Source of the DNA: a virus
Lineage: Duplodnaviria > Heunggongvirae > Uroviricota > Caudoviricetes
Direction: 5' to 3' (one strand)
Length of the DNA: 18,125 nucleotides
Virus record (IMG/VR): IMGVR_UViG_3300047493_000037
Coordinates: 158,713 to 176,837 of that record
The translations under genes were made by a program, and so were the position numbers. The notes under the pieces are model-generated. The model was given only the letters and a program-made list of their open reading frames with translations, made no database searches and was not told where the DNA came from. This document shows positions 370 to 17,637 of the stretch, in pieces; the stretch's first letter is position 1, and each line of letters starts with the position of its first letter.

Positions 370-420
370 AAATTGTGCCCCGATTTTCGTGGACTCGGGA
401 CCACATCCTAACCTTATTCG

Positions 421-3390: not shown

Positions 3391-3442
3391 TATCTAGTAT
3401 CGGAATAAGGGTTGTAAGGGTACAGTCGGCGTAGCAGTATCG
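3391..3442 (-). promoter_or_regulatory. Composite element, copy 1 (diverged box plus ATYCCGA motif)
   Basis: Plus strand GGCGTAGCAGTATC at 3428, 21-nt spacer, then ATTCCGA-TAC-TAGATA on minus, 5 nt, ATG 3385. Confidence 0.65.
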
Positions 3443-3468
3443 TGCGGGGCGCGATCAACGTAGGTCGA

Positions 3469-3477
3469 TGATATTAT
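3469..3477 (+). promoter_or_regulatory. Extended -10 promoter for the peptidase
   Basis: TGa-TATTAT about 30 nt upstream of ATG 3509. Confidence 0.45.
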
Positions 3478-3508
3478 TCTTGATGGCACGAAGATGCTAG
3501 GAGCTGAT

Positions 3509-4267
3509 ATGGTTAAGAAATTAGGTAAACTTCCAAGAACTCATGATCCAAGAGTAAAGCATATGAGTGCGATGCTACTTGGCAGACATCTACCTACTCC
3601 TCCAGAATCAGTTGACTGGACTAAAGGCATTAAAGACTTTGGCATGATGCTCAATGATGAGCTAGGTGATTGCACCTGTGCTGCGGTATTTCATGCTCGT
3701 CAGATTTGGACAGCAAACACGGAGACAGAAAGCACTGAGCCTGACGCCATGGTGCTTAAGCTGTATGAAGCGGCGTGCGGATACAACCCTGCAGACCCCA
3801 ACAGCGACACGGGTGGAATAGAGCAAAACGTACTTAACTACCTGTTTAACAAAGGTATTCCTTTAGCTGATGGCAGCGTGGATAAGATCTTAGGATACGC
3901 CGAGATTAACTTTAAGAACATTAACGAGGTCAAGGTTGCTATTAATGAGTTTGGATTGGCGTATATTGGAATTCAAGTTCCAGCTAGCATATATGACGCA
4001 AACGGTATTCCACTATCTATGTGGGATTATGTCCCAAACAGCGAACTTGAAGGCGGACATGCGATCATCGTCGTTGGATATGATAACAATGGGGTCACTG
4101 TGGTCTCATGGGGCGCATTATATAAGATGACATGGGCATTCTTTGATCACTACTGCGATGAAGCATATGCAATCATAGATAAAAACTGGATCGCCACAAG
4201 TGGTAAGACCCCATTAGGAGTCTCTTTGGAAGAGCTAGAAACACTTATGAAAGAGATAAGAGAGTAG
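3509..4267 (+). CDS. Papain-like (C1-like) cysteine peptidase
   Basis: MLNDELGDCTCAA (catalytic Cys), GGHAIIVVGYD (catalytic His), SWG, and an N-terminal P.SVDW. AGGAG RBS supports ATG 3509. Confidence 0.85.
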   Translation: MVKKLGKLPRTHDPRVKHMSAMLLGRHLPTPPESVDWTKGIKDFGMMLNDELGDCTCAAVFHARQIWTANTETESTEPDAMVLKLYEAACGYNPADPNSDTGGIEQNVLNYLFNKGIPLADGSVDKILGYAEINFKNINEVKVAINEFGLAYIGIQVPASIYDANGIPLSMWDYVPNSELEGGHAIIVVGYDNNGVTVVSWGALYKMTWAFFDHYCDEAYAIIDKNWIATSGKTPLGVSLEELETLMKEIRE

Positions 4268-4448
4268 TCAACGATCTCTCTTTAAGATAGAAGCTGCCCA
4301 CTCGTTCCACATGCCTCGACTATGTGATGAGTTTTCTTCGTCAGATCTTTTAATGTACTCTTTAGATACCCTCGTTCTCATCCATAAGTATCTGAGTAAT
4401 TGTCTTAAGTTAATCATGTTAAATGACTCTTCCATGAGTCTCGATTCA

Positions 4449-4724
4449 TTACCGAGACCACTCCTTTGCTAGATCATTGTATTCTTCCTGCATAAGAGTA
4501 GTTACCCGACCATTCCTGAGTATTCCGTAATGGCACTTAGTCATGCCCAACGACGATCCGTAAGTGGCACGAAATGCACTCAGACTGATTGTCTGACACT
4601 TAATGTGGTTACCATTGATGTCATGCACTTCAATCTTATAGACATGAGTGAGAGGAGCATCGCCACGATAGGTTGGTGAAGTGGATGCCTTGATAACCCG
4701 AATAAGCTCAAAACCTTTATTCAT
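4449..4724 (-). CDS. Hypothetical protein (91 aa)
   Basis: GGGAG RBS. ATYCCGA motif upstream. Confidence 0.7.
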   Translation of the reverse strand: MNKGFELIRVIKASTSPTYRGDAPLTHVYKIEVHDINGNHIKCQTISLSAFRATYGSSLGMTKCHYGILRNGRVTTLMQEEYNDLAKEWSR

Positions 4725-4763
4725 ACGTTTCTCCCTTAGCCTCTTGCTAAATGTTTATATGTT

Positions 4764-4779
4764 CATTTAGATTCGGAAT
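4764..4779 (-). promoter_or_regulatory. ATYCCGA-class promoter-like motif
   Basis: ATTCCGA-ATC-TAAATG upstream of ATG 4724. Confidence 0.55.
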
Positions 4780-4788
4780 AAGTTGACA

Positions 4789-4817
4789 TTGAAATTAACT
4801 GAGTTACATGGTATTAT
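4789..4817 (+). promoter_or_regulatory. Sigma70-type promoter
   Basis: TTGAAA (4789-4794), 17 nt, TATTAT (4812-4817) with an extended TG. An extra TTGACA lies at 4783. Confidence 0.7.
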
Positions 4818-4842
4818 TAAGTCATATTGTGAAGGAACGTGT

Positions 4843-7497
4843 ATGTCGATTAATACATTGAATTTTGGTAGTAAAGTAGTTTTTTTAAGTGGCTTGCCTC
4901 TCACCTTGCCAGTTATAGCATCTGATCCAGGCAGCGCAGGCGCCGGGGACATGTACTATAACTCAACATCTAACACAGTTAGATACTACAATGGTAGTGC
5001 TTGGCAAGACATTGGTGGTGGCGGAGGCGGCGGTGGAGCTAACACTGGTCTAAGCAACCTTACATCTACAGCTATTAATACATCTTTGATACCTGCAAGC
5101 GATGGCAGTATCGGACTTGGCTCACAAAGTTTAGGTTTTGCAGATGCATTTTCTGAGTCATGGAATGTAACAGATGGTGTTGGTAACATCAGTGCAGTGC
5201 TTCAAACTGGCCTGGCTGCTCCAGATGGTTCATCTACAGTTGCTCAACTTACTTCCAATTATGATCCTGCAAATACGAGCGCTGCGGGAGCTTTTGCCGT
5301 ATTCACTGGTAATGATGCTGTAAACAATACTGGTAACTTACTACTTGAAACTGGTAATGCAACTGGTGCAACTAATAACTCTGGCGATATTCATTTAACT
5401 ACAGGCACTACTGTCGGTGGTACAAAGGGTAACCTTGTAATCGCTGTAGGTCAAACTAACTTCTCTGACGGTTCACTTGTTGCTGTTCAAGAGATTATGT
5501 CTGGTGGCGGACTACAAATTCTTGACTCCGGCGGCAATACCTCTGTTAATATTGAAGGTCGTACGCTCATGTATAACACAGGAACTGAACTTTCCTGGGG
5601 TTCTGCTGGCGTAAACATCTTTAATACACTCACCATGAATGGTCAGTATATTAGCGGTTTACATGATCCTTTTGCTGCTCAAGATGCTGCTACTAAACAC
5701 TATGTAGACATGATTGGTACTCGTCCATTCGTCACCCTTAAGGATGATACGGCGGTAATTCTTCCTACTGGTTCTGCATATACAGCAGATGGACAACCGG
5801 TTGTTAACGGAAATAGAGTTTTATTCACAAATCTTGTTACTGGTAATAACGAAGTATATGTCGTAGGTGGCGTTGGCACATCTCTAACATGGACTCTTGC
5901 AACTGATGGTCAAAACGGTGATGGTACTCCAGCAGCTGGCGACATCTTGCTTGTTCTTGACGGTACAGCAAATGGTCAAAAACTATTTGATTACACTGGG
6001 GCAGCATGGAACAATATCAGTTCTTCTGGTGGTGGTTCAGGCGCTAACACCTCTCTATCTAATCTAACAACTACCTCTATCAACACCGACTTGCTTCCTA
6101 GTTCAGCAATCGGTGAAAGCATTGGTAGCTCAGCTCTTCCATGGTCTACCGTTTGGACTTCACTTATAAATCTCTCAGGTGGACCGGGAACAGTGGAAGC
6201 CCAAATTGAAGGTGGTGGATCAAGTCCATCCGGTGCTGCTTTACAACTTAGCATGTATGGCATCTATCAAAACTCTGCAGCACCTGGTAATGCTGGTCTT
6301 TGGGCTGGTGGTGATGGTACAGCAGACGCTAATCAAGGCGGGAGCTTATACCTAGAAACTGGCAATAAGATTAACGGAACAGGTAACGCTGGTGACATTA
6401 ATTTAAGAACTGGTACATCTATCGGCGGTAACTCTGGCAATATCAACCTGATGGTTGGTCCAGCTATCGGGCCAGGTGTTGGTAGTATTAATATTAATGC
6501 AAACATTCTACCAGTATCAGCATTCGGTAGTAGCATTGGCAGTCTTGCCCTTCCTATGGGCTTAATGGTATCTGATGCATTCCAAGTTTCTGGTGGCGCT
6601 TCTGATCCAGGGAACGCACAATTCTACGCAGGTGGTACTTCGGGGGCATCTGGTCAACAGATGGCTGCGTCTCTATCTGGTAGCTATGATTCAGTATATG
6701 CTTCAGCATTAGGTATAGGTTTTGGTTCTAACCCTGATAATGCAGCTGATGCCATCAACACTCTTGGTGTTTACATTGAATCTGGTAATCAGTCTAATGC
6801 TGGTGGAACAGGTAACTCTGGTCTCATTAACATTCAGACTGGTTCAACATCTGGAACAGGAAACACTGGTGGAATTAACATTCAGACTGGCGCACCACTT
6901 AACGGTGGGACTCGCGGTGCTATCACGATTGTTGGTAACGGTACTATAGTTGACAACAATGGCGACCTATCGATCGATTGGGGTATAAGAACGCTTAATG
7001 ATAGTGCTGGCGTACTTGCTATAGATTACGATGTAACTCGTGGTTTGTATAGCACAACAGGAGTTGCAGTGGCTGGTTGGGGCGATGTTGGACTTCTTCA
7101 ATTTAACATGCTCACTCACCCAATTGTGAACTTGGCTGATCCTACTAATCCTCAGGATGCTGCTACCAAGAATTATGTTGATAATTCTGCTGCAAGTTTC
7201 CCTGCAGTTACACTTACTGATGCCTCATCTACTAATGTCTACACAAATCAGGTAACAAAGAGTCGCATTATCGCTTACGAAGTTACAAGAAGCGGCGAAA
7301 CTCAGACTGGCATGATCATGATTGCTACCGATGGTGCAAGCGTTGTAAGTATCACTGATACTAATGTCAATACTGCAGCACTTGGAGTTACATTCACTGC
7401 AACTTCAACTGGTGGCACGACTACTCTTATTGCAACTACTACTGCGACTGGCACTGGTGCAGTTATGAGTTACAAGTACATGTTCGATAATGCTTAA
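4843..7497 (+). CDS. Gly/Thr/Ser-rich virion structural protein, tail-fibre-like (884 aa)
   Basis: GAAGGA RBS before ATG 4843. Motifs YYNSTSNTVRYYNGSAW, two DP...QDAATKxYVD, two GGG-ANTxLSNLTxTxINT and repeated LETGN/IQTG beta-type units. Confidence 0.75.
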   Translation: MSINTLNFGSKVVFLSGLPLTLPVIASDPGSAGAGDMYYNSTSNTVRYYNGSAWQDIGGGGGGGGANTGLSNLTSTAINTSLIPASDGSIGLGSQSLGFADAFSESWNVTDGVGNISAVLQTGLAAPDGSSTVAQLTSNYDPANTSAAGAFAVFTGNDAVNNTGNLLLETGNATGATNNSGDIHLTTGTTVGGTKGNLVIAVGQTNFSDGSLVAVQEIMSGGGLQILDSGGNTSVNIEGRTLMYNTGTELSWGSAGVNIFNTLTMNGQYISGLHDPFAAQDAATKHYVDMIGTRPFVTLKDDTAVILPTGSAYTADGQPVVNGNRVLFTNLVTGNNEVYVVGGVGTSLTWTLATDGQNGDGTPAAGDILLVLDGTANGQKLFDYTGAAWNNISSSGGGSGANTSLSNLTTTSINTDLLPSSAIGESIGSSALPWSTVWTSLINLSGGPGTVEAQIEGGGSSPSGAALQLSMYGIYQNSAAPGNAGLWAGGDGTADANQGGSLYLETGNKINGTGNAGDINLRTGTSIGGNSGNINLMVGPAIGPGVGSININANILPVSAFGSSIGSLALPMGLMVSDAFQVSGGASDPGNAQFYAGGTSGASGQQMAASLSGSYDSVYASALGIGFGSNPDNAADAINTLGVYIESGNQSNAGGTGNSGLINIQTGSTSGTGNTGGINIQTGAPLNGGTRGAITIVGNGTIVDNNGDLSIDWGIRTLNDSAGVLAIDYDVTRGLYSTTGVAVAGWGDVGLLQFNMLTHPIVNLADPTNPQDAATKNYVDNSAASFPAVTLTDASSTNVYTNQVTKSRIIAYEVTRSGETQTGMIMIATDGASVVSITDTNVNTAALGVTFTATSTGGTTTLIATTTATGTGAVMSYKYMFDNA

Positions 7498-7506
7498 TAA
7501 ATAAGT

Positions 7507-7665
7507 TCAGGAGGTAGACTCTGGATCGTCTCCAGGTCTATCTCCTTTTACTTTTAGTATATGCAATGCCCATTCTTGGCGAGATTCTGCTGGAAAAAAT
7601 CCGTGATTACCATCTATTTTCTTGCAAAGTTCTAAATACTTAATCAAATAGTATAAGTTAATCAC
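7507..7665 (-). CDS. Possible Leu-helix microprotein (LYYLIKYLEL)
   Basis: GTG 7665 overlaps the end of 7658..8125. The 3' end runs through the terminator hairpin, so this call is uncertain. Confidence 0.4.
   Translation of the reverse strand: MINLYYLIKYLELCKKIDGNHGFFPAESRQEWALHILKVKGDRPGDDPESTS
7510..7555 (+). terminator. Intrinsic terminator of the fibre gene
   Basis: GGAGGTAGAC/GTCTATCTCC outer stem, CTGGA/TCCAG inner stem, followed by TTTTACTTTT. Confidence 0.85.
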
Positions 7666-8125
7666 ATACCATCGCTTCTTCAAGAAGTTGCATGGCTCCA
7701 ATGCTTGCCACTTGATCTCTTCCTGAGAAGATACGCGTGAATCTGCTGCGATCCTCGTTGTAGTAACCTACTCCATTATAATAAGCACTGTGCCCATCAG
7801 TACAAACATACCAACCATTGCGCCTACAAATAGCGTTCATCTCCTTGCGATTAGCAAAAGTAAACTTTCCAATCTCAAGTTTTGCCAATTCATTAGCGAT
7901 GTGTGCTTCGCGAACAAGCATTTTAAGTTCACTAATGCTCTTTTTCATGAGCTTTTTAGAAGCCCTTATTGGACCATCTGGATCGTGGGTAATGTAACGC
8001 TTTTTCCAGTATAAATGATCTGCAAAACGAGCTTCACGCTTACGAGCAGTATGCCTCATTGCTTGCAACTCATTTTTCTTATACATTAAGGCACAAAGAC
8101 GAATTAAGTCATTGTTATGTTCCAT
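7658..8125 (-). CDS. Hypothetical basic protein (155 aa)
   Basis: GAGGGA RBS. ATYCCGA motif upstream. Confidence 0.8.
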   Translation of the reverse strand: MEHNNDLIRLCALMYKKNELQAMRHTARKREARFADHLYWKKRYITHDPDGPIRASKKLMKKSISELKMLVREAHIANELAKLEIGKFTFANRKEMNAICRRNGWYVCTDGHSAYYNGVGYYNEDRSRFTRIFSGRDQVASIGAMQLLEEAMVCD

Positions 8126-8139
8126 AATTCCCTCGTGTT

Positions 8140-8155
8140 TAGATAAGATCGGGAT
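8140..8155 (-). promoter_or_regulatory. ATYCCGA-class promoter-like motif
   Basis: ATCCCGA-TCT-TATCTA upstream of ATG 8125. Confidence 0.55.
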
Positions 8156-8159
8156 CGAG

Positions 8160-8522
8160 TTATTGATGCAGTTTTACTACACTCTTAACAACTTTCCAGT
8201 CAATTGGTCCACTGTTTCCCCAACTTTTGCACTTTTCCTGCAGTTGGCGCAATGAAACCCTCTTAACTTCGCAAGATTTCCTTATGCACAAACCATGAAT
8301 AGATCCGCGAGGATGCTCGGAGTCGTAGTGCTTACCACCAACAACAATCCAGCAGTGACAATCACAAGACATGATCTTTGATCTAGGATTCAGCTTATGC
8401 AAGATTACAGCAAATTGATAGCACCAACCAGAATTGATGCTGTATTCACCATAAAGTGGATAGTCAGCACGATTCTTATTCCACACATTAACAAAGTTTT
8501 CAATCAGCTTCTTTGTTATCAT
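8160..8522 (-). CDS. Small putative Cys-His-Asp (papain/transglutaminase-like) protein
   Basis: INSGWCYQFA...CHCW...GKHYDSE gives the Cys, His, Asp order typical of such folds. Family assignment is inferred by eye. Confidence 0.55.
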   Translation of the reverse strand: MITKKLIENFVNVWNKNRADYPLYGEYSINSGWCYQFAVILHKLNPRSKIMSCDCHCWIVVGGKHYDSEHPRGSIHGLCIRKSCEVKRVSLRQLQEKCKSWGNSGPIDWKVVKSVVKLHQ

Positions 8523-8588
8523 TAATGACCCCAAAAATGCTTAATAACCATTCCAACAGCGAGATAGAGACAAAATGTGCATGATAAG

Positions 8589-8768
8589 TCAATCAGTCTT
8601 ATTATCATATTCACTCCTCATTAAGGCTGCTATTTCTTGTCTCTCTATAAATGGGTCGATCTCTCGATCAGTAACCTTGTATTTGGTGGAACTTTTTATG
8701 TCGAGAGCAACGAGTAGATCTAATAGATAGCAACAACATAAAAATGGTCTATCTTCAACAACTCTCAT
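8589..8768 (-). CDS. Leu-helix microprotein (59 aa; YLLDLLVALDI)
   Basis: Manual translation. ATGA overlap. Confidence 0.65.
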   Translation of the reverse strand: MRVVEDRPFLCCCYLLDLLVALDIKSSTKYKVTDREIDPFIERQEIAALMRSEYDNKTD

Positions 8769-8944
8769 TGCTCACTTAATCTTATAGATAAATATATGTT
8801 CAGGAATGAGCGTCTGTGCCGCATTCTACGAGTAAAGTCACCTATGTCGCTATCATAGTGCTTATTACCACAACTATTTATTCCTAGGCAATACAAGACC
8901 CACGTTAGATCTATTGCGGACTGGTGATCAGGCTTTCTATCCAC
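8765..8944 (-). CDS. Leu-helix microprotein (59 aa; LTWVLYCLGI)
   Basis: Manual translation. GTG start overlaps the upstream stop. Confidence 0.55.
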   Translation of the reverse strand: MDRKPDHQSAIDLTWVLYCLGINSCGNKHYDSDIGDFTRRMRHRRSFLNIYLSIRLSEQ

Positions 8945-9116
8945 GACTCATTATCCTATCTACGAAGTCACCAATTGGTCTAGGATCGTGGTGGCGCTGC
9001 AAGACGTCGTCGGCAGATTGAATTCCTAAACTATTAAGAAGAGAAACTAATTTATCAGCAGATATAAGCATAACCCATTCACGTTCTCTAGAAAAGCAAG
9101 AATCATTATAATTCAT
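8937..9116 (-). CDS. Leu-helix microprotein (LVSLLNSLGI)
   Basis: ORF track gives 8937..9137 (GTG). ATG 9116 gives a smaller overlap. Confidence 0.65.
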   Translation of the reverse strand: MNYNDSCFSREREWVMLISADKLVSLLNSLGIQSADDVLQRHHDPRPIGDFVDRIMSRG

Positions 9117-9261
9117 ATTGATCCAGTATACTTTCACCTACAAGGGTTGATAGCATTCGCATAAGCTTACCATGAGATCTCCTCATCTCCTGAGTCCATG
9201 GAGTAGTAGGTGGAATTTCCATCCACTTTAACAAAAGTGTATCAAACTTTTCTCTAGTCAT
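9106..9261 (-). CDS. Leu-helix microprotein, subfamily A-like (51 aa; LMRMLSTLVG)
   Basis: Manual translation. ATGA overlap. Confidence 0.7.
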   Translation of the reverse strand: MTREKFDTLLLKWMEIPPTTPWTQEMRRSHGKLMRMLSTLVGESILDQYEL

Positions 9262-9431
9262 TTGATAGGTGATTCGAATTCAAAACCAACAAGTTTACCA
9301 ACTAGAACAACTAATAATAGTACATTAATTTTGCTCTTATTAGATAGCATTAACCATTGAGGATCATCGCCGTCGCGATTCCAGCGTTTAATTGCTTCAC
9401 GCAACTCCACATCTCTTCTCAACGCATCCAT
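9258..9431 (-). CDS. Leu-helix microprotein (57 aa; LVVLVGKLVG)
   Basis: Manual translation. First gene after composite element copy 2. Confidence 0.7.
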   Translation of the reverse strand: MDALRRDVELREAIKRWNRDGDDPQWLMLSNKSKINVLLLVVLVGKLVGFEFESPIK

Positions 9432-9436
9432 CAATT

Positions 9437-9493
9437 CTTATAAGATCGGGATTGGGGTAGTAGGTTGGCGTAGCAGTGTCAGTGCATGGTGCG
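9437..9493 (-). promoter_or_regulatory. Composite element, copy 2
   Basis: GGCGTAGCAGTGTCAG at 9467-9482 plus GCATGGTGCG at 9484. 14-nt spacer, ATCCCGA-TCT-TATAAG, 5 nt, ATG 9431. Confidence 0.75.
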
Positions 9494-9547
9494 GCCGATA
9501 AGCACAGCGAAATTAGTCTTATATTTCATATAGTTATAAATAATAAT

Positions 9548-9575
9548 GCAGACCCCAGGTTTCCCCAGGGTCTGC
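9548..9575 (-). terminator. Hairpin / probable terminator
   Basis: 12-bp stem GCAGACCCTGGG/CCTGGGGTCTGC with a GAAA loop, followed by ATTATTTATT. Confidence 0.7.
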
Positions 9576-9647
9576 GATGTTCTGCCACACACTCCGATTA
9601 AGAAATAAGTACGACAGCGATTCCCTACTATAAAAGTGGGATATTGT

Positions 9648-9794
9648 TTAAAAACCGTTAACGATATCGTAGACTACAAAGGCAACAATGGTGATGCAGA
9701 TATTTGCGGCTAAATTCTCGTAACCGTGAGTTTTCAAACCGTCACAGAAGATCCACATAACGGGGACAGTAACTGCCATTCTAACTAAAAACAT
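9648..9794 (-). CDS. Small membrane protein (48 aa, two hydrophobic segments)
   Basis: TAATG overlap with 9794..10003. MFLVRMAVTVPVMWIF...ICITIVAFVVYDIV. Confidence 0.6.
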   Translation of the reverse strand: MFLVRMAVTVPVMWIFCDGLKTHGYENLAANICITIVAFVVYDIVNGF

Positions 9795-10003
9795 TAGCGC
9801 ACCCGCTTTCCGTTCGTGAAAGTTCCAAACGCATCGGCGAGATGAAAAGCAGGAGTGAGCAAGTCTTGGCGCAAGAGTTTTTCTCTGCGAGCCTTCACCT
9901 GAGCGATATACCAATCGCTTGAGAAGTAAACCTTCGCTTCATCGTCAGTGAGAGTGGTCAGACCAACGCGCGCAGGAACCTTAACTTGAAATTTCTCTTC
10001 CAT
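9794..10003 (-). CDS. Hypothetical protein (69 aa)
   Basis: GGAG RBS and a clean ORF. Confidence 0.7.
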   Translation of the reverse strand: MEEKFQVKVPARVGLTTLTDDEAKVYFSSDWYIAQVKARREKLLRQDLLTPAFHLADAFGTFTNGKRVR

Positions 10004-10304
10004 ACAGACTCCATTTGGTTATAGACCCTATCTCCACATTCAGGTCCATACTTTGTCTTCTATGAGTTACCATCACACTTTGACAGCAGGTAACCGGTAG
10101 TGGAAAGACGCTTGCTTCTCATTTATTAGCAGCAAAATTAAGCTTAAGTGCAATATCACTCATGATATCACCTTAATTTTGCCCCACATACTTGAATCGC
10201 TTCGATTGGGTTAAAACTCTTATCGCCCTGCCGGGTTTTCGGAGTAAGCCAATGCCATGGACTTCGTTCGGTGGTTGCTAAACCTTTTAAATTTCTTATG
10301 TCTA

Positions 10305-10320
10305 AATCTAGATTCGGAAT
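10305..10320 (-). promoter_or_regulatory. ATYCCGA-class promoter-like motif
   Basis: ATTCCGA-ATC-TAGATT overlapping the stop of 10308..10454. Confidence 0.5.
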
Positions 10321-10454
10321 CGAGTTGGAGTTATCCTACTCTTAATGAGATTAAGTCCGTTGTATTCCCAAGTAGTCCCACTTAATCTTCCTACTTTATA
10401 CAATACTGCTTCGGATAGAAAATAAAGTAATTGCCGAAATTGATTATCAGTCAT
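10308..10454 (-). CDS. Possible Leu-helix microprotein (48 aa; RQLLYFLSE)
   Basis: ATG 10454 lies directly after the hairpin, within ORF-track entry 10308..10511. Confidence 0.5.
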   Translation of the reverse strand: MTDNQFRQLLYFLSEAVLYKVGRLSGTTWEYNGLNLIKSRITPTRFRI

Positions 10455-10463
10455 ATAAATAGG

Positions 10464-10510
10464 TGTGGGAAGAGCAACTACCTCGCATCCGGAGGATTGC
10501 TCTTCCCACA
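10464..10510 (-). terminator. Long hairpin downstream of GC-rich paralog 1
   Basis: 14-bp perfect inverted repeat TGTGGGAAGAGCAA/TTGCTCTTCCCACA with an inner CCTC/GAGG stem. Confidence 0.7.
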
Positions 10511-10536
10511 TATTGGTGGCTTATCGCAGTCGATCC

Positions 10537-11019
10537 TTACCCGACCAGGTGCTCGAGACCAGAAGCCTTGAGCAATGCGATCTGGTCCGCAGTGAGCTCT
10601 TTCTTCACAGCGGCAGGACGAAGTTCGGCAACGCGCTTGTCGATGAACGCCTGAATTTCAGCGCGCTCAGTCTTGTCCGTCTTCGTTGCGAGAAGAAGGC
10701 GCATCGCAGCGATCGACTCGTCCTTCGAGCCGGCGCGAGAGCCAGGGTTTTTAGCTTCGTACTTGACGTTGCCGTTCAAGCGTGGGTCTTTGCGCAGCCA
10801 GTTGGACTGCAAGCCGGAGACGTATGCCTTGAGCTTGGCATCGTCATATTGCTTGCTCGAATCGAGCTCGATCTTGCCTTCGCGAAAGCCTTCGAATAGG
10901 ATCTGGTTGACTGAAGCCCGCTGTTCCTTGGTAGGTTGGCAAGCTTCTTCGAAAGAGGTGACACCGAAAACACCGCAGAGAGCGGCAAAGACTGCATTCT
11001 TCTGATTCATTTGGCTCAT
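10537..11019 (-). CDS. GC-rich conserved hypothetical protein, paralog 1 (160 aa)
   Basis: GGAGG RBS before ATG 11019. Strong codon bias. 50/60 identical to 15470..15922 over the RKD..ELxP core. Confidence 0.9.
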   Translation of the reverse strand: MSQMNQKNAVFAALCGVFGVTSFEEACQPTKEQRASVNQILFEGFREGKIELDSSKQYDDAKLKAYVSGLQSNWLRKDPRLNGNVKYEAKNPGSRAGSKDESIAAMRLLLATKTDKTERAEIQAFIDKRVAELRPAAVKKELTADQIALLKASGLEHLVG

Positions 11020-11091
11020 GTATGTTCCTCCAAACATGATTTGTTACACACTTGATTAGTTTCAGAATTATTTCGTCACTAATCACTTACA

Positions 11092-11232
11092 CTACAATTG
11101 TAGGTTCGGAATATTCTTCCTTGAGAAGGTAACTATTTGGCGGGTAGAAAAGTCACAATTAAGTTTTAACTTAACAAGTAAGCATTCCAAGGCGATGACA
11201 GCTGTGACGTGACTTATTACACTATTGCTCAT
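11092..11232 (-). CDS. Leu-helix microprotein (46 aa; LECLLVKLKL)
   Basis: Manual translation. ATGA overlap. Confidence 0.65.
   Translation of the reverse strand: MSNSVISHVTAVIALECLLVKLKLNCDFSTRQIVTFSRKNIPNLQL
11097..11112 (-). promoter_or_regulatory. ATYCCGA-class promoter-like motif for paralog 1
   Basis: ATTCCGA-ACC-TACAAT, embedded in the 3' end of the last array gene. Confidence 0.6.
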
Positions 11233-11399
11233 CGTATGAAATTTCTTTTTCCTTGTCTTGTGGCAAACTCTGCAAAACTGTAATTATTTACTTCATCATA
11301 ATCCACTAAATCAAGATTATGAAGTAGTGCTAATAGCATAGATAAAGGTGGAACAGTAGTTTCCTTGCACAGGCTAAGATAGTTTGATTTATTTGGCAT
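11229..11399 (-). CDS. Leu-helix microprotein (56 aa; MLLALLHNLDL)
   Basis: Manual translation. Overlaps both neighbours. Confidence 0.65.
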   Translation of the reverse strand: MPNKSNYLSLCKETTVPPLSMLLALLHNLDLVDYDEVNNYSFAEFATRQGKRNFIR

Positions 11400-11529
11400 T
11401 GAATAGTGCCGCCTTCAAGTTTAGTCCTGTTAAAAGACTTAACAAATCAAATAATTTATATGCAGATTTTCTGACCTCTGGTGTAATTTCAGCATAGTTA
11501 GCAGAGTTACGATATTTTGACCACTTCAT
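11389..11529 (-). CDS. Leu-helix microprotein (46 aa; LFDLLSLLTG)
   Basis: Manual translation. Starts 2 nt after the upstream stop. Confidence 0.65.
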   Translation of the reverse strand: MKWSKYRNSANYAEITPEVRKSAYKLFDLLSLLTGLNLKAALFNAK

Positions 11530-11530
11530 G

Positions 11531-11674
11531 CTATTCCTTTAAAACCCTATCAGTATAGTCACAAACCCTTACAACAGTTGCACCATCTTTCCAAGGTTTC
11601 ATGAGCTTAAATGTCTTTAGAAGATGAACAAGTCTCATAACGCTAGCGTCAATAATGTGTCTATCTTTCACCAT
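11531..11674 (-). CDS. Leu-helix microprotein (47 aa; LVHLLKTFKL)
   Basis: Manual translation. Overlaps the upstream stop. Confidence 0.65.
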   Translation of the reverse strand: MVKDRHIIDASVMRLVHLLKTFKLMKPWKDGATVVRVCDYTDRVLKE

Positions 11675-11829
11675 AAGGCTCTATCCCTAAATCTGTTTCT
11701 TCTTCTACCTATATAGCTAATAGCAAGGAGAGCTGTATCGGCAATATTAGTAGACTTTGTTAAGCTTAAACTAATCAAAAGACGTAACAATGAATATATC
11801 GAGTTATCGTGACTACTGGAATACTTCAT
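11668..11829 (-). CDS. Leu-helix microprotein (53 aa; LLRLLISLSL)
   Basis: Manual translation. ATGA overlap. Confidence 0.65.
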   Translation of the reverse strand: MKYSSSHDNSIYSLLRLLISLSLTKSTNIADTALLAISYIGRRRNRFRDRALW

Positions 11830-12002
11830 TTCCACGACTTCCTATATCTTTTGTTATAAGCATGATGATTGCCAAGATCATTCATGTCTTCAAAATCCAT
11901 CACATGTAGGTTATTCAGCAGCACCAATAGGTATGCAATAGGTTTACAAACGAACCCATCTACATCATGCTTATGCAGTATTATGTATTTTCTTCTCACC
12001 AT
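11826..12002 (-). CDS. Leu-helix microprotein (58 aa; LLVLLNNLHV)
   Basis: Manual translation. Overlaps both neighbours. Confidence 0.65.
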   Translation of the reverse strand: MVRRKYIILHKHDVDGFVCKPIAYLLVLLNNLHVMDFEDMNDLGNHHAYNKRYRKSWK

Positions 12003-12199
12003 CCCGGATGATACATCTTTCTATGCTTCAAGAACTTAAAACTTCCCAAAAAGCAACGACACATGCCAATCTTCTCAGTGTACTTGATAAGCGTATACCA
12101 ATACGACGCTTCTCTTTGTCTTATCAAAGATATTGCTTTTATTTTGCCAAGAAACTCAATTAGATGCTTAGCATCACTAAAATCTGTGTTTTCCATCAC
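11996..12199 (-). CDS. Leu-helix microprotein (67 aa; LIEFLGKIKA)
   Basis: ORF track. GTGA overlap. Confidence 0.65.
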   Translation of the reverse strand: MMENTDFSDAKHLIEFLGKIKAISLIRQREASYWYTLIKYTEKIGMCRCFLGSFKFLKHRKMYHPGW

Positions 12200-12336
12200 T
12201 TTAGGTGCCTAATTATAAAATTGTTAACACGTATGACACCAGGAGGTGTTGTCTCCATTAAACCTAGGTTGCCCAAGATAACGAGGAGCGAAACGACGTC
12301 ATCATGAATCACACGATATAAACTATAATGCCTCAT
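12196..12336 (-). CDS. Leu-helix microprotein (46 aa; LLVILGNLGL)
   Basis: Manual translation. Confidence 0.6.
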   Translation of the reverse strand: MRHYSLYRVIHDDVVSLLVILGNLGLMETTPPGVIRVNNFIIRHLK

Positions 12337-12565
12337 AGCAGATAATACCAATAACTAAACCAATCACTGCACTAATGCCGACCCAATTGGGGAAGAAATG
12401 GAAATGTGGTCTAAACCATGCCAAGTATGAGCTATTACCAATATTAAACTGGCCAATAGGTGTTTGAATGACGAATGTAATAGCATTCACCTTAATCGCA
12501 CTCTCATTGTCATAAGTGCCAAAGGTTTGAGACCAAGTATATCGCAATTTACTTATATTTACCAA
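12323..12565 (-). CDS. Small protein with a C-terminal transmembrane segment (about 80 aa; start uncertain)
   Basis: WVGISAVIGLVIGIICY is hydrophobic. Fills the gap in the array. Confidence 0.6.
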   Translation of the reverse strand: MVNISKLRYTWSQTFGTYDNESAIKVNAITFVIQTPIGQFNIGNSSYLAWFRPHFHFFPNWVGISAVIGLVIGIICYEAL

Positions 12566-12689
12566 TCTTTAGTTTCCTCACAGTGAAATTCCACGCATCC
12601 ATTCTTACAATGAATGGGTAGATTTTAAGTCGACCTATTAACTCTAACAACAATATAACAGATAAATATTCCTTATGAAAATCCTTCAT
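12549..12689 (-). CDS. Leu-helix microprotein (46 aa; LLELIGRLKI)
   Basis: Manual translation. Confidence 0.6.
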   Translation of the reverse strand: MKDFHKEYLSVILLLELIGRLKIYPFIVRMDAWNFTVRKLKIGKYK

Positions 12690-12714
12690 GAGTGCCTTCT
12701 TTGCAGCAAAGATG

Positions 12715-12873
12715 TCATAAATCGTAAAACTCGCCTGTTCCCAGAAGTGCGGATAACAACTCGAGCAATGCGATCACGCTATTATCATGCGCTTCCTGGC
12801 CCATACCCTTGCAAGTGGGATACCACTCGGTGCATAGTTTATCTAACAGAAAATCTATCTCTGCGTTAGTCAT
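12715..12873 (-). CDS. Leu-helix microprotein, subfamily A (52 aa; LLELLSALLGTGEF)
   Basis: ORF-track entry 12715..12903, with the start refined to ATG 12873. Confidence 0.8.
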   Translation of the reverse strand: MTNAEIDFLLDKLCTEWYPTCKGMGQEAHDNSVIALLELLSALLGTGEFYDL

Positions 12874-13042
12874 TACTTTTATGCCTAACATATCTATCAA
12901 CAAGTCCAGATATGTTCTCGTAATCTAGCGCGTCAACAGGTATGACTATATTCAAGCGCATTAGAAATCGCACTAGCGTTAGTAATTCGTGCTTAAGAAG
13001 AAACCTATTAATGCGCTGCTTAGGAGTTAAGTTGGTTTTCAT
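12866..13042 (-). CDS. Leu-helix microprotein (58 aa; LVRFLMRLNI)
   Basis: Manual translation. ATGA overlap. Confidence 0.65.
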   Translation of the reverse strand: MKTNLTPKQRINRFLLKHELLTLVRFLMRLNIVIPVDALDYENISGLVDRYVRHKSND

Positions 13043-13179
13043 ATGTTATAAAACCTCTTAGTGCCGATAAGCGCCGATAACAGCTCGCATAATGCGGTTA
13101 CGGCATATCGCTTGTCATCGTCGTCCTCATAACCAGCTTTTACCCAGAAATCCTTAACAATGTCTTCCCTAGTTTTCAT
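13039..13179 (-). CDS. Leu-helix microprotein, subfamily A (46 aa; LCELLSALIGTKRF)
   Basis: Manual translation. ATGA overlaps at both ends. Confidence 0.8.
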   Translation of the reverse strand: MKTREDIVKDFWVKAGYEDDDDKRYAVTALCELLSALIGTKRFYNI

Positions 13180-13349
13180 CCCTTTGGCTCTATTCCTAAC
13201 AAATACAGCAACTTAGCCAAATTGAACGCACCACCTCGCGCATCCTCGCTCGAACCTGCCACCCAATGTGCGTTCAACTTAGATATGAATCCGTCTTTCA
13301 CGTCATACCAAGTCTCTGCACAGTTCCACTTGTCAAGTCTGTACGTCAT
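13176..13349 (-). CDS. Leu-helix microprotein (57 aa; LAKLLYLLGIEP)
   Basis: ORF track, with the start refined to the ATGA overlap at 13349. Confidence 0.75.
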   Translation of the reverse strand: MTYRLDKWNCAETWYDVKDGFISKLNAHWVAGSSEDARGGAFNLAKLLYLLGIEPKG

Positions 13350-13594
13350 GGATCCCAAAAGTCGTTTCTCTTCCACACATCCACACTCAACTTAATGAGG
13401 AGTACCCCTAGCACTCGGGTAGTGCGGATATCTACCCACCAGCACCCGTTGCATCCACCTCGAGCGTATGGGTAGACATCCCTCTCCTTAAGCCTATTAG
13501 CCCACCTATACCAATCATGCCAAGGGGTGAAGTATGCACTCTTTGGATGCTGACGGTGCCTGTTATCTTTACACATTTTACATTCGGATGACAT
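13346..13594 (-). CDS. Leu-helix microprotein with two CxxC (82 aa; LGVLLIKLSV)
   Basis: ORF track 13346..13651. ATG 13594 preferred. CKMC and CNGC present. Confidence 0.65.
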   Translation of the reverse strand: MSSECKMCKDNRHRQHPKSAYFTPWHDWYRWANRLKERDVYPYARGGCNGCWWVDIRTTRVLGVLLIKLSVDVWKRNDFWDP

Positions 13595-13671
13595 ATAACT
13601 CGCTGATATGGTTAGGGCAAGGGGAGACAAACCTATCGATGGGCCGCCCACTCACTATACACTCACCTAAA

Positions 13672-13812
13672 TTAGAACTCTGCCGTGCCTATCAACTTAG
13701 ATAATAGCCTACATAAGCTAAACAATGCACCTGCGCGGTCCTGTCTACCCCTTATGGGGAGACGACAGTAGAGATAAATCAAGGATTGTCCTATATCATC
13801 TCTAGATCTCAC
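13672..13812 (-). CDS. Leu-helix microprotein, subfamily A (46 aa; LCRLLSKLIGTAEF)
   Basis: GTGA overlap start at 13812. Confidence 0.8.
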   Translation of the reverse strand: MRSRDDIGQSLIYLYCRLPIRGRQDRAGALFSLCRLLSKLIGTAEF

Positions 13813-13952
13813 AAGTTTATATCTCCTGTCCCTAGGAGGGAGGATAACAATCTTGCGAGACACCTCTCGGAGCGGCTCGCATACGGTGGCAGGTCGCTTC
13901 TAAAGAACCAGTAGAAGAGGAACTTGTCTACCTGCAGGGGAGATGGTCTCAT
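13809..13952 (-). CDS. Leu-helix microprotein, subfamily A (47 aa; LARLLSSLLGTGDI)
   Basis: Manual translation. 4-nt overlaps at both ends. Confidence 0.8.
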   Translation of the reverse strand: MRPSPLQVDKFLFYWFFRSDLPPYASRSERCLARLLSSLLGTGDINL

Positions 13953-14083
13953 ATGAATCTCCCATTAGATATGAGGATGGACAGGAGTTTGCACAGGTTA
14001 TACTTCGGGAGATACTGCCGACTGCTAGCCAACGGCATCACCTGGTAGTACCACTTGTGCAGCTGCCAATCAAGGTCCTTCAC
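13949..14083 (-). CDS. Leu-helix microprotein, subfamily A (44 aa; LCKLLSILISNGRF)
   Basis: Manual translation. 4-nt overlaps at both ends. Confidence 0.8.
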   Translation of the reverse strand: MKDLDWQLHKWYYQVMPLASSRQYLPKYNLCKLLSILISNGRFI

Positions 14084-14226
14084 TGGAATGCTCCGTTGCC
14101 TATAAATAGCGATAACAGCTCGCAAAGCTTGTGCTGAGCGACGTTCTTGCTCTCCCTATAGTTGGGTGTGTTGTTGTAAAACCACACGTCGAGCACTTCA
14201 TCTACCCGACTACGTCTCCCTGTCAT
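14080..14226 (-). CDS. Leu-helix microprotein, subfamily A (48 aa; LCELLSLFIGNGAF)
   Basis: ATG 14226 is the first codon after composite element copy 3. Confidence 0.8.
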   Translation of the reverse strand: MTGRRSRVDEVLDVWFYNNTPNYRESKNVAQHKLCELLSLFIGNGAFQ

Positions 14227-14231
14227 GTTGA

Positions 14232-14297
14232 TGTATATGATCGGGATAGGCCGATGGCGCACTGGCGGGGAGCTGGAGTGCGGCGTAGCAGTGTCAG
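14232..14297 (-). promoter_or_regulatory. Composite element, copy 3
   Basis: GGCGTAGCAGTGTCAG at 14282-14297. 34-nt spacer containing a CGCACT/AGTGCG inverted repeat. ATCCCGA-TCA-TATACA, 5 nt, ATG 14226. Confidence 0.75.
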
Positions 14298-14334
14298 CTA
14301 TAGCTAGGGCCACGCTCAGCGGGGAATAGGAGTT

Positions 14335-14401
14335 GGGAGGGATGGCCTGAGCCTATCCCTCCCTCTATGCAGCGTTGGTAACAGCTGACGTAACACGCTG
14401 C
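14335..14401. other. Two tandem hairpins after the 15209-14401 operon
   Basis: GGGAGGGAT/ATCCCTCCC with inner GGC/GCC (14335-14363), and GCAGCGT/ACGCTGC (14369-14401). No U-tract. Confidence 0.65.
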
Positions 14402-14562
14402 TAGGACTGAGTTGACTGTAGCTCGCAGAAATAACAGCGGCAATCCGCGCTCGGATTCTCTTTAATAGCTACAACATGGGAATGCTCTGGCATGGGGATA
14501 GATGCACCTTCCACAATCTCTTCGAACTGCTGCATCAAGTCTTTATCTGAGTGATAGCTCAT
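14401..14562 (-). CDS. Small protein with C-terminal CxCxxC (53 aa)
   Basis: Manual translation MSYHSDKDL...DCRCYFCE. ATGA overlap. Confidence 0.6.
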   Translation of the reverse strand: MSYHSDKDLMQQFEEIVEGASIPMPEHSHVVAIKENPSADCRCYFCELQSTQS

Positions 14563-14684
14563 TTGCCCCTCCGAGTCCAGTCGTCAAACTCCTTGTTAGC
14601 AATCCTCATGGCGTAGTTGTATCCGCACATGAATGCCACGAAGAGTGAGAATAGAATAGCAATCATTCCATAGGCATATGTCAT
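14559..14684 (-). CDS. Small single-pass membrane protein (41 aa)
   Basis: MTYAYGMIAILFSLFVAFMCGY. ATGA overlaps at both ends. Confidence 0.6.
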   Translation of the reverse strand: MTYAYGMIAILFSLFVAFMCGYNYAMRIANKEFDDWTRRGK

Positions 14685-14836
14685 GCAACTCTCCTCTTGG
14701 CTACGAAGTCCACATAGACTACATTATCAGGTGCTGGACCACTCCACTCATCCACAATATCGCCGTCATGAGTATAGCTGCTTGAGTAGCAACTGCAGTC
14801 GTCAGCGGCTTCATCGCAACGGATACAGTAGTCCAT
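14681..14836 (-). CDS. Small acidic Cys-rich protein (51 aa; CxxC...CxC)
   Basis: GGAGG RBS. MDYCIRCDEAADDCSCY. Confidence 0.7.
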   Translation of the reverse strand: MDYCIRCDEAADDCSCYSSSYTHDGDIVDEWSGPAPDNVVYVDFVAKRRVA

Positions 14837-14846
14837 ACGTCCTCCT

Positions 14847-15209
14847 TCAGTCAGTTTGCTCGAAGTGATTGATGAGATCAGTCTTAGTGAGATGATCTGC
14901 CCAGCAATAGAGTTTGCCGTCTATCGCTCTGAGGAGCGAGATTTCCACGTCGTAGTGAGTGACTTGACCAGTTACTGAGTTAGTCCAACTCTTCCTAGCC
15001 GCAAAGTCAACCACATTGTCCCCAAACTTCTCATGAGCGCACGTGATCACTGTCATGTATGGCTCCTCGCTACCATACACGTTTTCCAGGACAGACTCAT
15101 GTTCAGTATCTCTCAATTCCTCATCAGTGTAGTCAGAGTCAGCAAGCACAATCAAGAATTTATGACCTCTCATAGATCCTCCATAGATTCGGATAAAGTT
15201 GGTGGTCAT
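14847..15209 (-). CDS. Hypothetical acidic protein (120 aa)
   Basis: ORF track. Heads a coupled mini-operon downstream of composite element copy 4. Confidence 0.75.
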   Translation of the reverse strand: MTTNFIRIYGGSMRGHKFLIVLADSDYTDEELRDTEHESVLENVYGSEEPYMTVITCAHEKFGDNVVDFAARKSWTNSVTGQVTHYDVEISLLRAIDGKLYCWADHLTKTDLINHFEQTD

Positions 15210-15300
15210 TTTAGGCGTACACCACCATCCGCCGGATGTCAGACATGTGCTGACCCATAATTAAGGTATATAACCTCGTATTACTCGTTGGTGATGTATG

Positions 15301-15363
15301 TATATAGTGTCGGGATGGGGCAGGGTAGGCGTAGCAGTGTCAGTAGCCCCAAGGCATGGTGCG
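15301..15363 (-). promoter_or_regulatory. Composite element, copy 4
   Basis: GGCGTAGCAGTGTCAG at 15328-15343 and GCATGGTGCG at 15354. 11-nt spacer. ATCCCGA-CAC-TATATA. Confidence 0.75.
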
Positions 15364-15429: not shown

Positions 15430-15456
15430 GGGAGGGAGACGTTGCATCTCCCTCCC
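15430..15456. terminator. Hairpin downstream of GC-rich paralog 2
   Basis: 10-bp perfect stem GGGAGGGAGA/TCTCCCTCCC, 13 nt after the stop. No U-tract on minus. Confidence 0.55.
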
Positions 15457-15990: not shown

Positions 15991-16077
15991 TTAGACAGTA
16001 GAATCAGCAACCAACTCGAACTCGCGCATCAACTCAAGTAACTCAGCATCGATGATTTCGATATTGTTTTCATTCAT
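15991..16077 (-). CDS. Possible 28-aa acidic peptide
   Basis: MNENNIEIIDAELLELMREFELVADSTV by manual translation: 8 acidic residues, 1 basic. Confidence 0.35.
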   Translation of the reverse strand: MNENNIEIIDAELLELMREFELVADSTV

Positions 16078-16255
16078 GCATTGTTATAGAGTCAGGATTG
16101 TCCGATGCTATGAGCAAAACAGGGCCCGCTGGCCTTGCCTTACTGAGGCTCCCTTGAGTCGGGACCGGTACCCACGGCCAATGCTTTGTGTACATAGGCT
16201 TTTTCTAATAGGTCAACTCAGGTACTGGTACATTCCTAATAGGTATAAATATAAT

Positions 16256-16441
16256 ATGCAATTCCACACGCATGGCCTTTGCGAAAACTTCCACTTGCGC
16301 CCTTACCTCTCGTCATATGCCTGCATCAAGGGTTTATGCCACTGCTCTTGCCACACCAGCGGCGTTGAGGCTCTCTTTACACTTCTCAACAGCTTATCTA
16401 TTCATCACTCACGTGCTTCATACCCATTCTTAGGTGGCTAA
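16256..16441 (+). CDS. Leu-helix microprotein, Cys/His-rich (61 aa; LFTLLNSLSI)
   Basis: 3' part of ORF-track entry 16052..16441. ATG 16256 follows TATAAA/TATAAT. Start uncertain. Confidence 0.6.
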   Translation: MQFHTHGLCENFHLRPYLSSYACIKGLCHCSCHTSGVEALFTLLNSLSIHHSRASYPFLGG

Positions 16442-16442
16442 C

Positions 16443-16625
16443 ATGAAGCACCTCTATCCTGGCTACAATCAACCTTACGAACTCTTGCCACCCCACGTTG
16501 TGAGTGATGAGGGCGCAATACTACTTCACGAGAATGCCCACCCCACTTGCGCCCTCATCCTCTTCCTCAACAAGCTCTCCCTGATACATCGAACAGTTTG
16601 TCCTGTCGTGGAGGAAGATATATGA
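16443..16625 (+). CDS. Leu-helix microprotein (60 aa; LILFLNKLSL)
   Basis: ORF track. ATG 16443 lies 1 nt after the previous stop. Confidence 0.65.
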   Translation: MKHLYPGYNQPYELLPPHVVSDEGAILLHENAHPTCALILFLNKLSLIHRTVCPVVEEDI

Positions 16626-16771
16626 TGGTTCATTCAAGGGAATGTGCTCGACCTCACCCATGGAATGACTGCTATATTAAGTGCGCTTGTAGATGTCATC
16701 ATCTCTACTACCTCATGCATTTCTTAAGGGTACTCAGAGTTTTATCGCACGACTATAGACCCAACATATGA
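16622..16771 (+). CDS. Leu-helix microprotein, Cys/His-rich (49 aa; LMHFLRVL)
   Basis: ATGA overlaps at both ends. Confidence 0.65.
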   Translation: MMVHSRECARPHPWNDCYIKCACRCHHLYYLMHFLRVLRVLSHDYRPNI

Positions 16772-16959
16772 AATACATGGATAACATTGCTGCTTGTATC
16801 AGCCTGTGTCGCGGCCCCGCTGAGACCGACGCGGAATTGCTTAATCGCATCAAGTATGCTTATAGGTCGAGAGCTTATCCCAAAGAGCTCCCTCTGCTGC
16901 GCCTCCTCTCTAAGCTACAACTTAAGTCCACGCGTTGGCACTTCAGCGAGGTCCCATGA
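16768..16959 (+). CDS. Leu-helix microprotein (63 aa; LLRLLSKLQL)
   Basis: ORF track. ATGA overlaps at both ends. Confidence 0.7.
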   Translation: MKYMDNIAACISLCRGPAETDAELLNRIKYAYRSRAYPKELPLLRLLSKLQLKSTRWHFSEVP

Positions 16960-17111
16960 CTGGACTACTTATAAGACCCAATACCCCAGAGTTTCGCAAG
17001 TTGCTCATATTGCTTCTTAAGGTGCACGCAGTAACCCTACCGTACAACTTAGGCGCAGCTGTTTCCCTGCTTGCCGCTATAGGATATGAGGGCTCTGGTA
17101 TACAGCTATGA
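16956..17111 (+). CDS. Leu-helix microprotein (51 aa; LLILLLKV)
   Basis: Manual translation. ATGA overlaps at both ends. Confidence 0.65.
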   Translation: MTGLLIRPNTPEFRKLLILLLKVHAVTLPYNLGAAVSLLAAIGYEGSGIQL

Positions 17112-17254
17112 CAACATACACTCCAGAACAGTGGGACCACATCTTGCCAATGCTCTATTTGTTATGGACACTTAGAGTGAGGCGTAAGATGTTAAGCATT
17201 CATCGCTACACTGCGCTAGCAGGCAATCGAGTTGAGGTGCGTTGGGTTGGATAA
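17108..17254 (+). CDS. Leu-helix microprotein (48 aa; MLYLLWTLRV)
   Basis: Manual translation. ATGA overlap. Confidence 0.65.
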   Translation: MTTYTPEQWDHILPMLYLLWTLRVRRKMLSIHRYTALAGNRVEVRWVG

Positions 17255-17471
17255 GAATTACATCTACCTTAATAAGCTGTTTCACTCTGCTAATTATGAC
17301 GCCCTCGCTAGGTTGCTTAACTCTTACCCCATTCACGGGGATTACAAGTTGGGTGAGGCGCACATAGCCATCAACATGGCTTCTCACTCGTACGCGTTCA
17401 CGAGCGTTCATCACATTGAGCTGGGCATCTTCTTGCACAAGCTTGGACTAAGAGGTAAGGATGTCGATTAA
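17232..17471 (+). CDS. Leu-helix microprotein (79 aa; LARLLNS and LGIFLHKLGL)
   Basis: ORF track. TTG start is uncertain. Confidence 0.6.
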   Translation: MRCVGLDKNYIYLNKLFHSANYDALARLLNSYPIHGDYKLGEAHIAINMASHSYAFTSVHHIELGIFLHKLGLRGKDVD

Positions 17472-17637
17472 GGTAAGCTTTAATGGAGCTACAATATACA
17501 AGCCAAGTTGTAATAGCTTTAGGTTGTTACCCACTTGCTCTTGTCCATCTATATTTCTAAGTAGCACCGCGCCGCTGGCACACTTAGACCTGTTTCGCTT
17601 GCTTCATGCACTCTTGCATAAAGGTCCGTCCCTGTGA
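17461..17637 (+). CDS. Leu-helix microprotein (58 aa; LFRLLHALL)
   Basis: Manual translation. GAGG/AAGG RBS. GTGA overlap downstream. Confidence 0.65.
   Translation: MSIKVSFNGATIYKPSCNSFRLLPTCSCPSIFLSSTAPLAHLDLFRLLHALLHKGPSL

Follow-up and report, generated by a model that had tools for sequence, protein, structure and literature searches.

In the middle promoters of phage T4, the MotA box, of about 9 bp, occupies a fixed position near -30, and sigma is appropriated by MotA together with AsiA. KorB sites of IncP-1 plasmids are palindromes at which KorB represses, and Bacillus phage SPO1 uses host sigma-A consensus promoters with no common upstream box. T4-type phages also carry promoter/stem-loop (PeSL) cassettes (Arbiol et al. 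2010, PMC2839356; Comeau et al. 2014, PMC4122927), whose promoters follow the sigma-70 consensus, with -35 and -10 elements and AT-rich upstream sequence, and which have no invariant extra box (PMC2839356). Here we describe a 16-nt box that recurs ahead of operons in an uncultivated tailed phage. The window, meaning the whole stretch of DNA analysed, comprises the final 18,125 bases of a 176,837-base IMG/VR virus record (G+C 42.8%), IMGVR_UViG_3300047493_000037. With a little better than even confidence, we read the box as a cis-acting site for a predicted sequence-specific regulatory protein, likeliest an activator, placed upstream of a subset of the promoters that belong to the phage itself.

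Sequences are quoted in gene orientation, which is the minus strand, unless stated otherwise. The box reads CTGACACTGCTACGCC, or GGCGTAGCAGTGTCAG on the plus strand. A sequence-only reading of the window had described it as identical at three sites and diverged at a fourth, and a match scan bore this out. Exact copies were found at 9467..9482 (copy 2), 14282..14297 (copy 3) and 15328..15343 (copy 4), and copy 1, at 3428..3443, carried three mismatches, its 5' end being diverged (ACGATACTGCTACGCC) and the 11-nt 3' part intact. Every copy has GGCGTAGCAGTGTCAG on the plus strand, that is, the box itself on the minus strand. These four matches at no more than three mismatches compare with 0.08 expected, and four were reached in none of 200 shuffles. 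A fifth exact copy was located at genome position 155449, 3.2 kb ahead of the window. All five full copies in the genome were intergenic, within its last 22 kb and co-oriented on the gene strand, and each was followed by aTYCCGA-N3-TATAnn. The constant orientation upstream of ATYCCGA, with spacers of 14 nt (9467), 34 nt (14282), 11 nt (15328) and 21 nt (3428), was thus reproduced exactly in the window, and the genome-wide scan, in which randomly oriented copies could have appeared, returned only co-oriented ones upstream of the promoter motif. Measured from box to CCGA, the distances at the five genome copies were 14, 24, 17, 37 and 14 nt.

The exact 16-mer was recovered from 66 stretches of IMG/VR contigs and from at least 120 metagenome stretches. 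Across 125 distinct contexts, positions 3-7 and 9-15 were invariant and positions 1, 2, 8 and 16 varied slightly, and the flanks were unrelated except for a C-rich bias. Among relatives that were at least 90% complete, the motif was present in eight of eight, usually as a co-oriented cluster within one 10-20 kb region; a reversed-pattern control gave 0 matches. Five complete relatives had no other non-coding DNA in common with the window. Variant boxes coexisted with canonical ones within single genomes, indicating that there is no lineage with shifted specificity. The box-bearing phage contigs belonged to one clade, with head proteins 66-90% identical to that of this phage. Genomes of the clade are about 150-177 kb, come from soil, moss, freshwater and sediment metagenomes, and include no cultured members. 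A search of 185,579 prokaryote genomes yielded about 100 single exact 16-mer matches, and the matches were either single and chance-like or on phage contigs binned into metagenome-assembled genomes (MAGs). A host regulon was rejected, as the contigs in cellular genomes that carried several matches or a homologue of P0002, the early protein described below, were only phage contigs binned into MAGs. Rfam and transfer RNA (tRNA) scans gave no match at the boxes, and a full-text literature search for the box 12-mers returned only unrelated primer matches.

The box was strictly polar with respect to the downstream motif. In 89 of the 125 contexts the promoter motif followed the box on its own strand at a distance of no more than 60 nt, against 0-1 of 125 in three control configurations, and this polarity was replicated in the metagenome set (68 against 0-3). 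Box-to-CCGA distances formed peaks at 5-6, 14-16 and 24-27 nt that were separated by gaps. In the first set, the Rayleigh maximum was R=0.36 at 10.6 nt, a value exceeded by 0-2 of 5000 smoothed nulls. An independent metagenome set of 152 new contexts gave the same peaks, with R=0.35 at 11.2 nt (exceeded by 6-7 of 3000 nulls). Counted from the inferred start at a leaderless ATG, the box centre would lie near -32, -41 or -51, of which -41 was the commonest.

We then characterized the promoter class downstream of the box. The motif extends to ATYCCGA-N3-TATAnn, and a weight matrix was built from the family and applied at a threshold of at least 13 bits. This gave 19 minus-strand sites and one plus-strand site in the genome, against 2.95 expected per strand from shuffles; the sites spanned genome positions 97-175 kb and lay directly upstream of start codons. 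The most frequent offset from hexamer to ATG, both genome-wide and across the family, was exactly 5 nt, and this gap was found at three of the four window copies (ATG at 14226, 9431 and 3385), with no Shine-Dalgarno sequence. A hexamer 5 nt ahead of the ATG is placed as a -10 hexamer would be for a leaderless mRNA, so leaderless mRNAs are probably produced from many early genes, and this may offer a hint on the host. The same 5-nt gap, again with no Shine-Dalgarno sequence, was also seen at several promoters without a box (e.g. genome 141383 and 104237). No -35 element at 17-bp spacing was present at the four window promoters, and E. coli-type -35/-10 promoters were not enriched in a scan (37 found, 39.3 expected). 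We conclude that aTYCCGA-N3-TATAnn defines a genuine class of promoters that have no -35 element.

Motif scores placed four of the five promoters linked to a box among the best in the genome. The promoter of copy 4 (15301..15316, minus strand; ATCCCGA-N3-TATATA) had the best score in the genome, 20.4 bits, with its CCGA 14 nt past the box, and stands ahead of the operon at 15209-14401 (minus strand), with a leader of about 90 nt. The promoter of copy 3 (14232..14247, minus strand) scored 17.8 bits, with CCGA 37 nt past the box and the ATG at 14226 heading a microprotein array. Those of copy 2 (9437..9452, minus strand; ATG 9431) and copy 1 (3391..3406, minus strand; ATG 3385) scored 15.7 and 12.8 bits, with CCGA 17 and 24 nt past the box, respectively. 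The suggestion that the element heads each operon proved too strong, since six motif sites in the window lacked a box. One of these (8140..8155, minus strand, 16.2 bits) precedes the open reading frame (ORF) at 8125-7658, and the others start at 788, 4764, 8791, 11097 and 16083. Separately, the structural genes, on the plus strand at genome 1-92 kb, carried a different promoter-like motif of extended -10 type, TG(G/T)TATAAT, for example upstream of 1666, 6019, 29149, 67399, 74637 and 82105. The phage therefore appears to have at least two promoter classes. Two conventional identities for the box itself were rejected. As a -35 element, its CTGACA part would need a 0-nt spacer, and no spacer of that length was observed, lengths of 9-11 nt being avoided as well; as a sigma-54 promoter (GG at -24 and GC at -12, 10 nt apart), it has TGACAC rather than TGGCAC, with the GC out of register.

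Strong hairpins had been reported ahead of copies 2-4, and folding energies and z-scores agreed. Ahead of copy 2, a 12-bp stem followed by a T-rich tail formed an intrinsic terminator (9548..9575, minus strand; -24.4 kcal/mol, z -5.9). Terminator-like hairpins preceded copy 3 (14335..14363, minus strand; -24.0 kcal/mol, z -3.4) and copy 4 (15430..15456, minus strand; -25.3 kcal/mol, z -7.9), the latter closing the upstream unit, which ends with P0002. When the copy outside the window was included, values ranged from -20.6 to -25.3 kcal/mol and from z -3.4 to -7.9. Across the family, the 60 nt upstream of the box folded at a mean of -18.6 kcal/mol compared with -10.8 kcal/mol for controls; the hairpin usually ended 0-3 nt from the box, and its sequence was variable. 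We rejected the hairpin as a part of the element, because dispersed copies of the box core occur without one, which indicates that each hairpin is the terminator of the preceding unit. As the box follows a terminator and precedes the -10 hexamer, it should not be transcribed. The spacer had also been described as rich in G runs on the plus strand. The corresponding C-richness on the gene strand was family-wide (33% C), but no canonical G-quadruplex pattern was found in the 125 contexts. A G-quadruplex role was accordingly rejected: four C3 runs occurred in 0 of 125 contexts, and typical spacers are too short.

A polar, invariant, untranscribed and helically phased site beside a -35-less promoter is best read as a binding site for a regulatory protein, and an activator is favoured because promoters without a -35 element commonly depend on one. 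In the mechanism we propose, the regulatory protein would dock on the box and contact RNA polymerase from a single side of the helix. The promoters consist of a -10 hexamer and the proximal CCGA, with no -35 element, and transcription would often start at the A of the ATG. Lying after the terminator of the preceding unit, box-linked promoters form insulated terminator-box-promoter cassettes at operon heads, in a hyperplastic and presumably early region with microprotein arrays and the P0002 family. Protein binding, activation rather than repression, and the early timing of the operons are all points that we infer. The earlier interpretation is supported in part: its main proposal, a binding site for an activator or RNA polymerase factor, fits the polarity, the phasing in two independent sets, the invariance across the clade and the position between terminator and promoter.

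Four points weigh against this reading. Because the phages used to measure the phasing are related, its cases are not fully independent of one another. With thirteen invariant positions, the box exceeds typical transcription-factor sites. Its core, TGACACTGCTTCG, occurs in about 11 further copies inside genes, without a nearby promoter or hairpin, and a pure promoter element fails to explain these. Finally, Pfam searches of the genome gave no match to sigma regions 2 and 4, MotA (PF09158 and PF09114), TnpB, or tyrosine and serine recombinase models, with no Phage_integrase or Resolvase domain; the T7-type polymerase model (PF00940) gave no match either, nor did it in control genomes.

The nearest alternative to an activator site is an operator or roadblock, at which a later phage protein would shut off the early cassettes or halt terminator read-through. 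The polarity, phasing and invariance that point to a protein-binding DNA site apply to it equally. In the family the box also sits against the terminator hairpin, as a rule within 0-3 nt, and P0002-family genes often have a box on either side, the arrangement expected of an autoregulated gene. Repressors, however, usually overlap the core promoter, and here the box stands clear of it on the upstream side, with phased distances extending to 25-60 nt; -35-less promoters, moreover, are commonly activator-dependent. We regard an operator as unlikely, while granting it more weight than any of the other alternatives.

The copies of the core inside genes require separate consideration. The core, (T)GACACTGCTTCG, had about 11 extra genome copies against about 0.02 expected for the exact 12-mer. 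Almost all were within ORFs, sense or antisense, and in varied reading frames. Intragenic GACACTGCTTCG sites were found on both strands, at genome 8518, 15991, 30180, 40138, 57355, 76032, 101130, 125146 and 136745 (loci L008-L014), and only 136745 among the extra copies had a downstream promoter motif. Relatives also carried extra core copies, which in distant lineages read CTGACACTGCTACGG. Several were at orthologous positions, where 14 bases were invariant and neighbouring wobble positions varied. In most relatives the extra copies were on the strand of the early cluster, and in this genome and in relative G026 they were mixed. A global regulator with orphan sites could explain these copies, as could processing that is specific to one strand. 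A broader reading, which we consider rather improbable, is that the 13-nt core is the address of a genome-wide system in which one factor marks 6-17 sites per genome, among them the conserved intragenic sites that are strand-biased in most relatives. This factor might be delivered with the virion (e.g. the 521-aa head-operon protein discussed below, with its putative sigma region-2-like module), or it could be a nickase or a DNA-binding protein directed by a guide. A marked site on the correct helical face of a -35-less promoter would then switch on the first operons expressed after infection.

Another reading, doubtful in our view, is that the core is a strand-specific DNA-processing site, such as the nick sites of T5 or phiKMV, perhaps with an enhancer-like entry function near early promoters. 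It would account for a core that recurs 6-17 times per genome, also within genes and unlinked to gene strand or frame, and for the fact that nearly all copies in most relatives (about 55 of 59) are on one strand. The invariance of intragenic copies amid varying wobble positions fits it as well. A nick site, on the other hand, needs neither phased spacing to a promoter nor strict polarity, and both this genome and G026 have their dispersed copies split between strands. Nor was any gene recognised as coding for a nickase; the protein labelled HNH endonuclease by PHROGs matched only metallopeptidase- and VWA-like (DUF2201) domains in Pfam.

The sequence-only reading had also raised recombination, and we evaluated whether the box might be kept chiefly as a homology or recombination module for swaps of early cassettes between co-infecting phages, in the manner of PeSLs (PMC2839356, PMC4122927). 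The cassette region had almost no nucleotide similarity between relatives except for the boxes and P0002-family genes, which is in line with such swapping. Copies 2 and 4 had been noted to share additional sequence, and this was the case: a 10-mer, GCATGGTGCG (gene orientation CGCACCATGC), was common to both at different offsets, suggesting cassette duplication. It was found nowhere else in the 177-kb genome, and only 4 of the 125 family contexts contained it, so it is not family-wide. Sixteen bases are nevertheless very short for homologous recombination, the genome contained no match to a tyrosine or serine recombinase, and contig ends were not enriched near boxes (20 observed, 18.2 expected). 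Relatives compared for breakpoints were either identical or unalignable, with none of intermediate divergence. Recombination would also leave the helical phasing and the intragenic copies unexplained, and we give it little credence.

Least credible of all is that the box acts as RNA (in processing, nut-like antitermination or base-pairing) or is an unrecognised phage RNA polymerase promoter: its invariance over 13-16 nt does recall base-pairing sites or single-subunit polymerase promoters (TGACACT is also part of the SP6 promoter), and a hairpin of variable sequence directly precedes the family box, but the box lies between terminator and -10 and so should be absent from both flanking transcripts, dispersed copies have no hairpin, Rfam gave no match, no polymerase gene was found in a search that lacked a positive control, and the distance fixed to the start codon is that of the CCGA-TATA motif and not that of the box.

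Two leads to the proposed factor emerged from the sequence. P0002 (15470..15922, minus strand), a conserved early protein, is about 150 aa long and belongs to a family that is found only in viruses and is tightly linked to boxes. This genome has two further paralogs, P0001 (10537-11037, minus strand) and a third at genome 156815-157282 (minus strand). The family is marked by the motif SNWLRKDKRLNGG..Y.AKNPGSRAGS, and some members end in a VD.SALP..L tail. Its genes were the only coding DNA in the early region that was conserved at the nucleotide level across the clade. Among 70 P0002 homologues, a box occurred at most 400 nt after the stop codon in 41 and at most 300 nt before the start codon in 21. 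The fold model was confident (predicted local distance difference test, pLDDT, 85), and it returned no informative fold match, the Atlas giving only viral hypothetical proteins. The linkage to boxes makes the family a lead, and only that, as a candidate box binder. The other lead is the 521-aa head-operon protein (genome 76175-77740, plus strand; L011:16175-17740), which had a weak match to FliA region 2 over residues 381-473 (E=0.002) and no Pfam family match. Promoters that have no -35 element would go well with a sigma factor lacking region 4; this protein is likewise only a lead.

Genes for a tail sheath, portal, terminase, major head protein, GroEL and DNA polymerase are present in the record. 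The head (capsid) protein shared about 32% (at most 33%) identity with its counterparts in SPO1-like phages, and a comparison with 50,697 phage records gave no nucleotide match to a cultured relative. Genes in the window were mostly on the minus strand, in arrays of very small ORFs. Two plus-strand genes break these arrays, one at 3494-4267 and a tail-like gene of 904 aa at 4783-7497. A tRNA-Ile with anticodon TAT was reported at 420-491 (minus strand) by both ARAGORN and Rfam. At the right end, overlapping small plus-strand ORFs ran from 16052 to 18125, so a divergently oriented microprotein array may be present there. A short patch at 16084-16258 was 80-83% identical to early regions of relatives L023, L030, L035 and L065, which were otherwise unalignable; it adjoins a promoter without a box.

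The clade thereby gains a concrete class of -35-less, often leaderless promoters, with predicted transcription start sites and what would be a conserved upstream switch. The microprotein arrays probably act in host takeover or counter-defence, and the switch would control these hypervariable arrays. A site that stays invariant while its surroundings change, and that is found again at conserved intragenic positions, suggests a mechanism of recognition under tight constraint, and the 16-base box could be used as bait for the regulator.

Among described systems, PeSLs resemble the cassettes in architecture. Both combine a terminator stem-loop and a promoter in a compact intergenic unit, in hyperplastic regions and ahead of small genes of unknown function. 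The resemblance to PeSLs drawn earlier holds for this architecture, with the stem-loop joined to the promoter, but not for the promoters, which here do not follow the sigma-70 consensus with AT-rich upstream sequence: the flanks are C-rich, there is no -35 element, and a clade-invariant 16-mer stands at phased distances from a CCGA-N3-TATA promoter, an extra box of a kind that PeSLs lack (PMC2839356). For integron attC or shufflon sfx sites, the genome has no Phage_integrase or Resolvase domain, and the dispersed cores have no hairpin.

MotA boxes resemble this element in the absence of a working -35, an asymmetric upstream box, TGCT and extra intragenic copies. They differ in that the box here covers 13-16 nt and takes three or more phased distances; the fixed MotA position, about 12 bp upstream of the -10, was not observed, the box end lying from 12 to more than 40 nt from TATA. 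With face-of-helix activator promoters the element shares distance steps of one helical turn (10.6 nt, and 11.2 nt in the replicate). As in class I/II promoters of the CRP type, its sites are one helical turn apart, and its main centre near -41 compares with -41.5 for class II; CRP sites, however, are palindromic and degenerate, whereas this box is asymmetric, polar and almost invariant. KorB offers a parallel in a nearly invariant site that a mobile genome reuses close to promoters, at a distance from them and inside genes, with the difference that KorB operators are palindromic and repressing. The host-takeover module of SPO1, also a myovirus and a distant relative by capsid protein (about 32% identity), likewise consists of clustered short operons that encode very small proteins, and every operon has a promoter and a terminator to itself.

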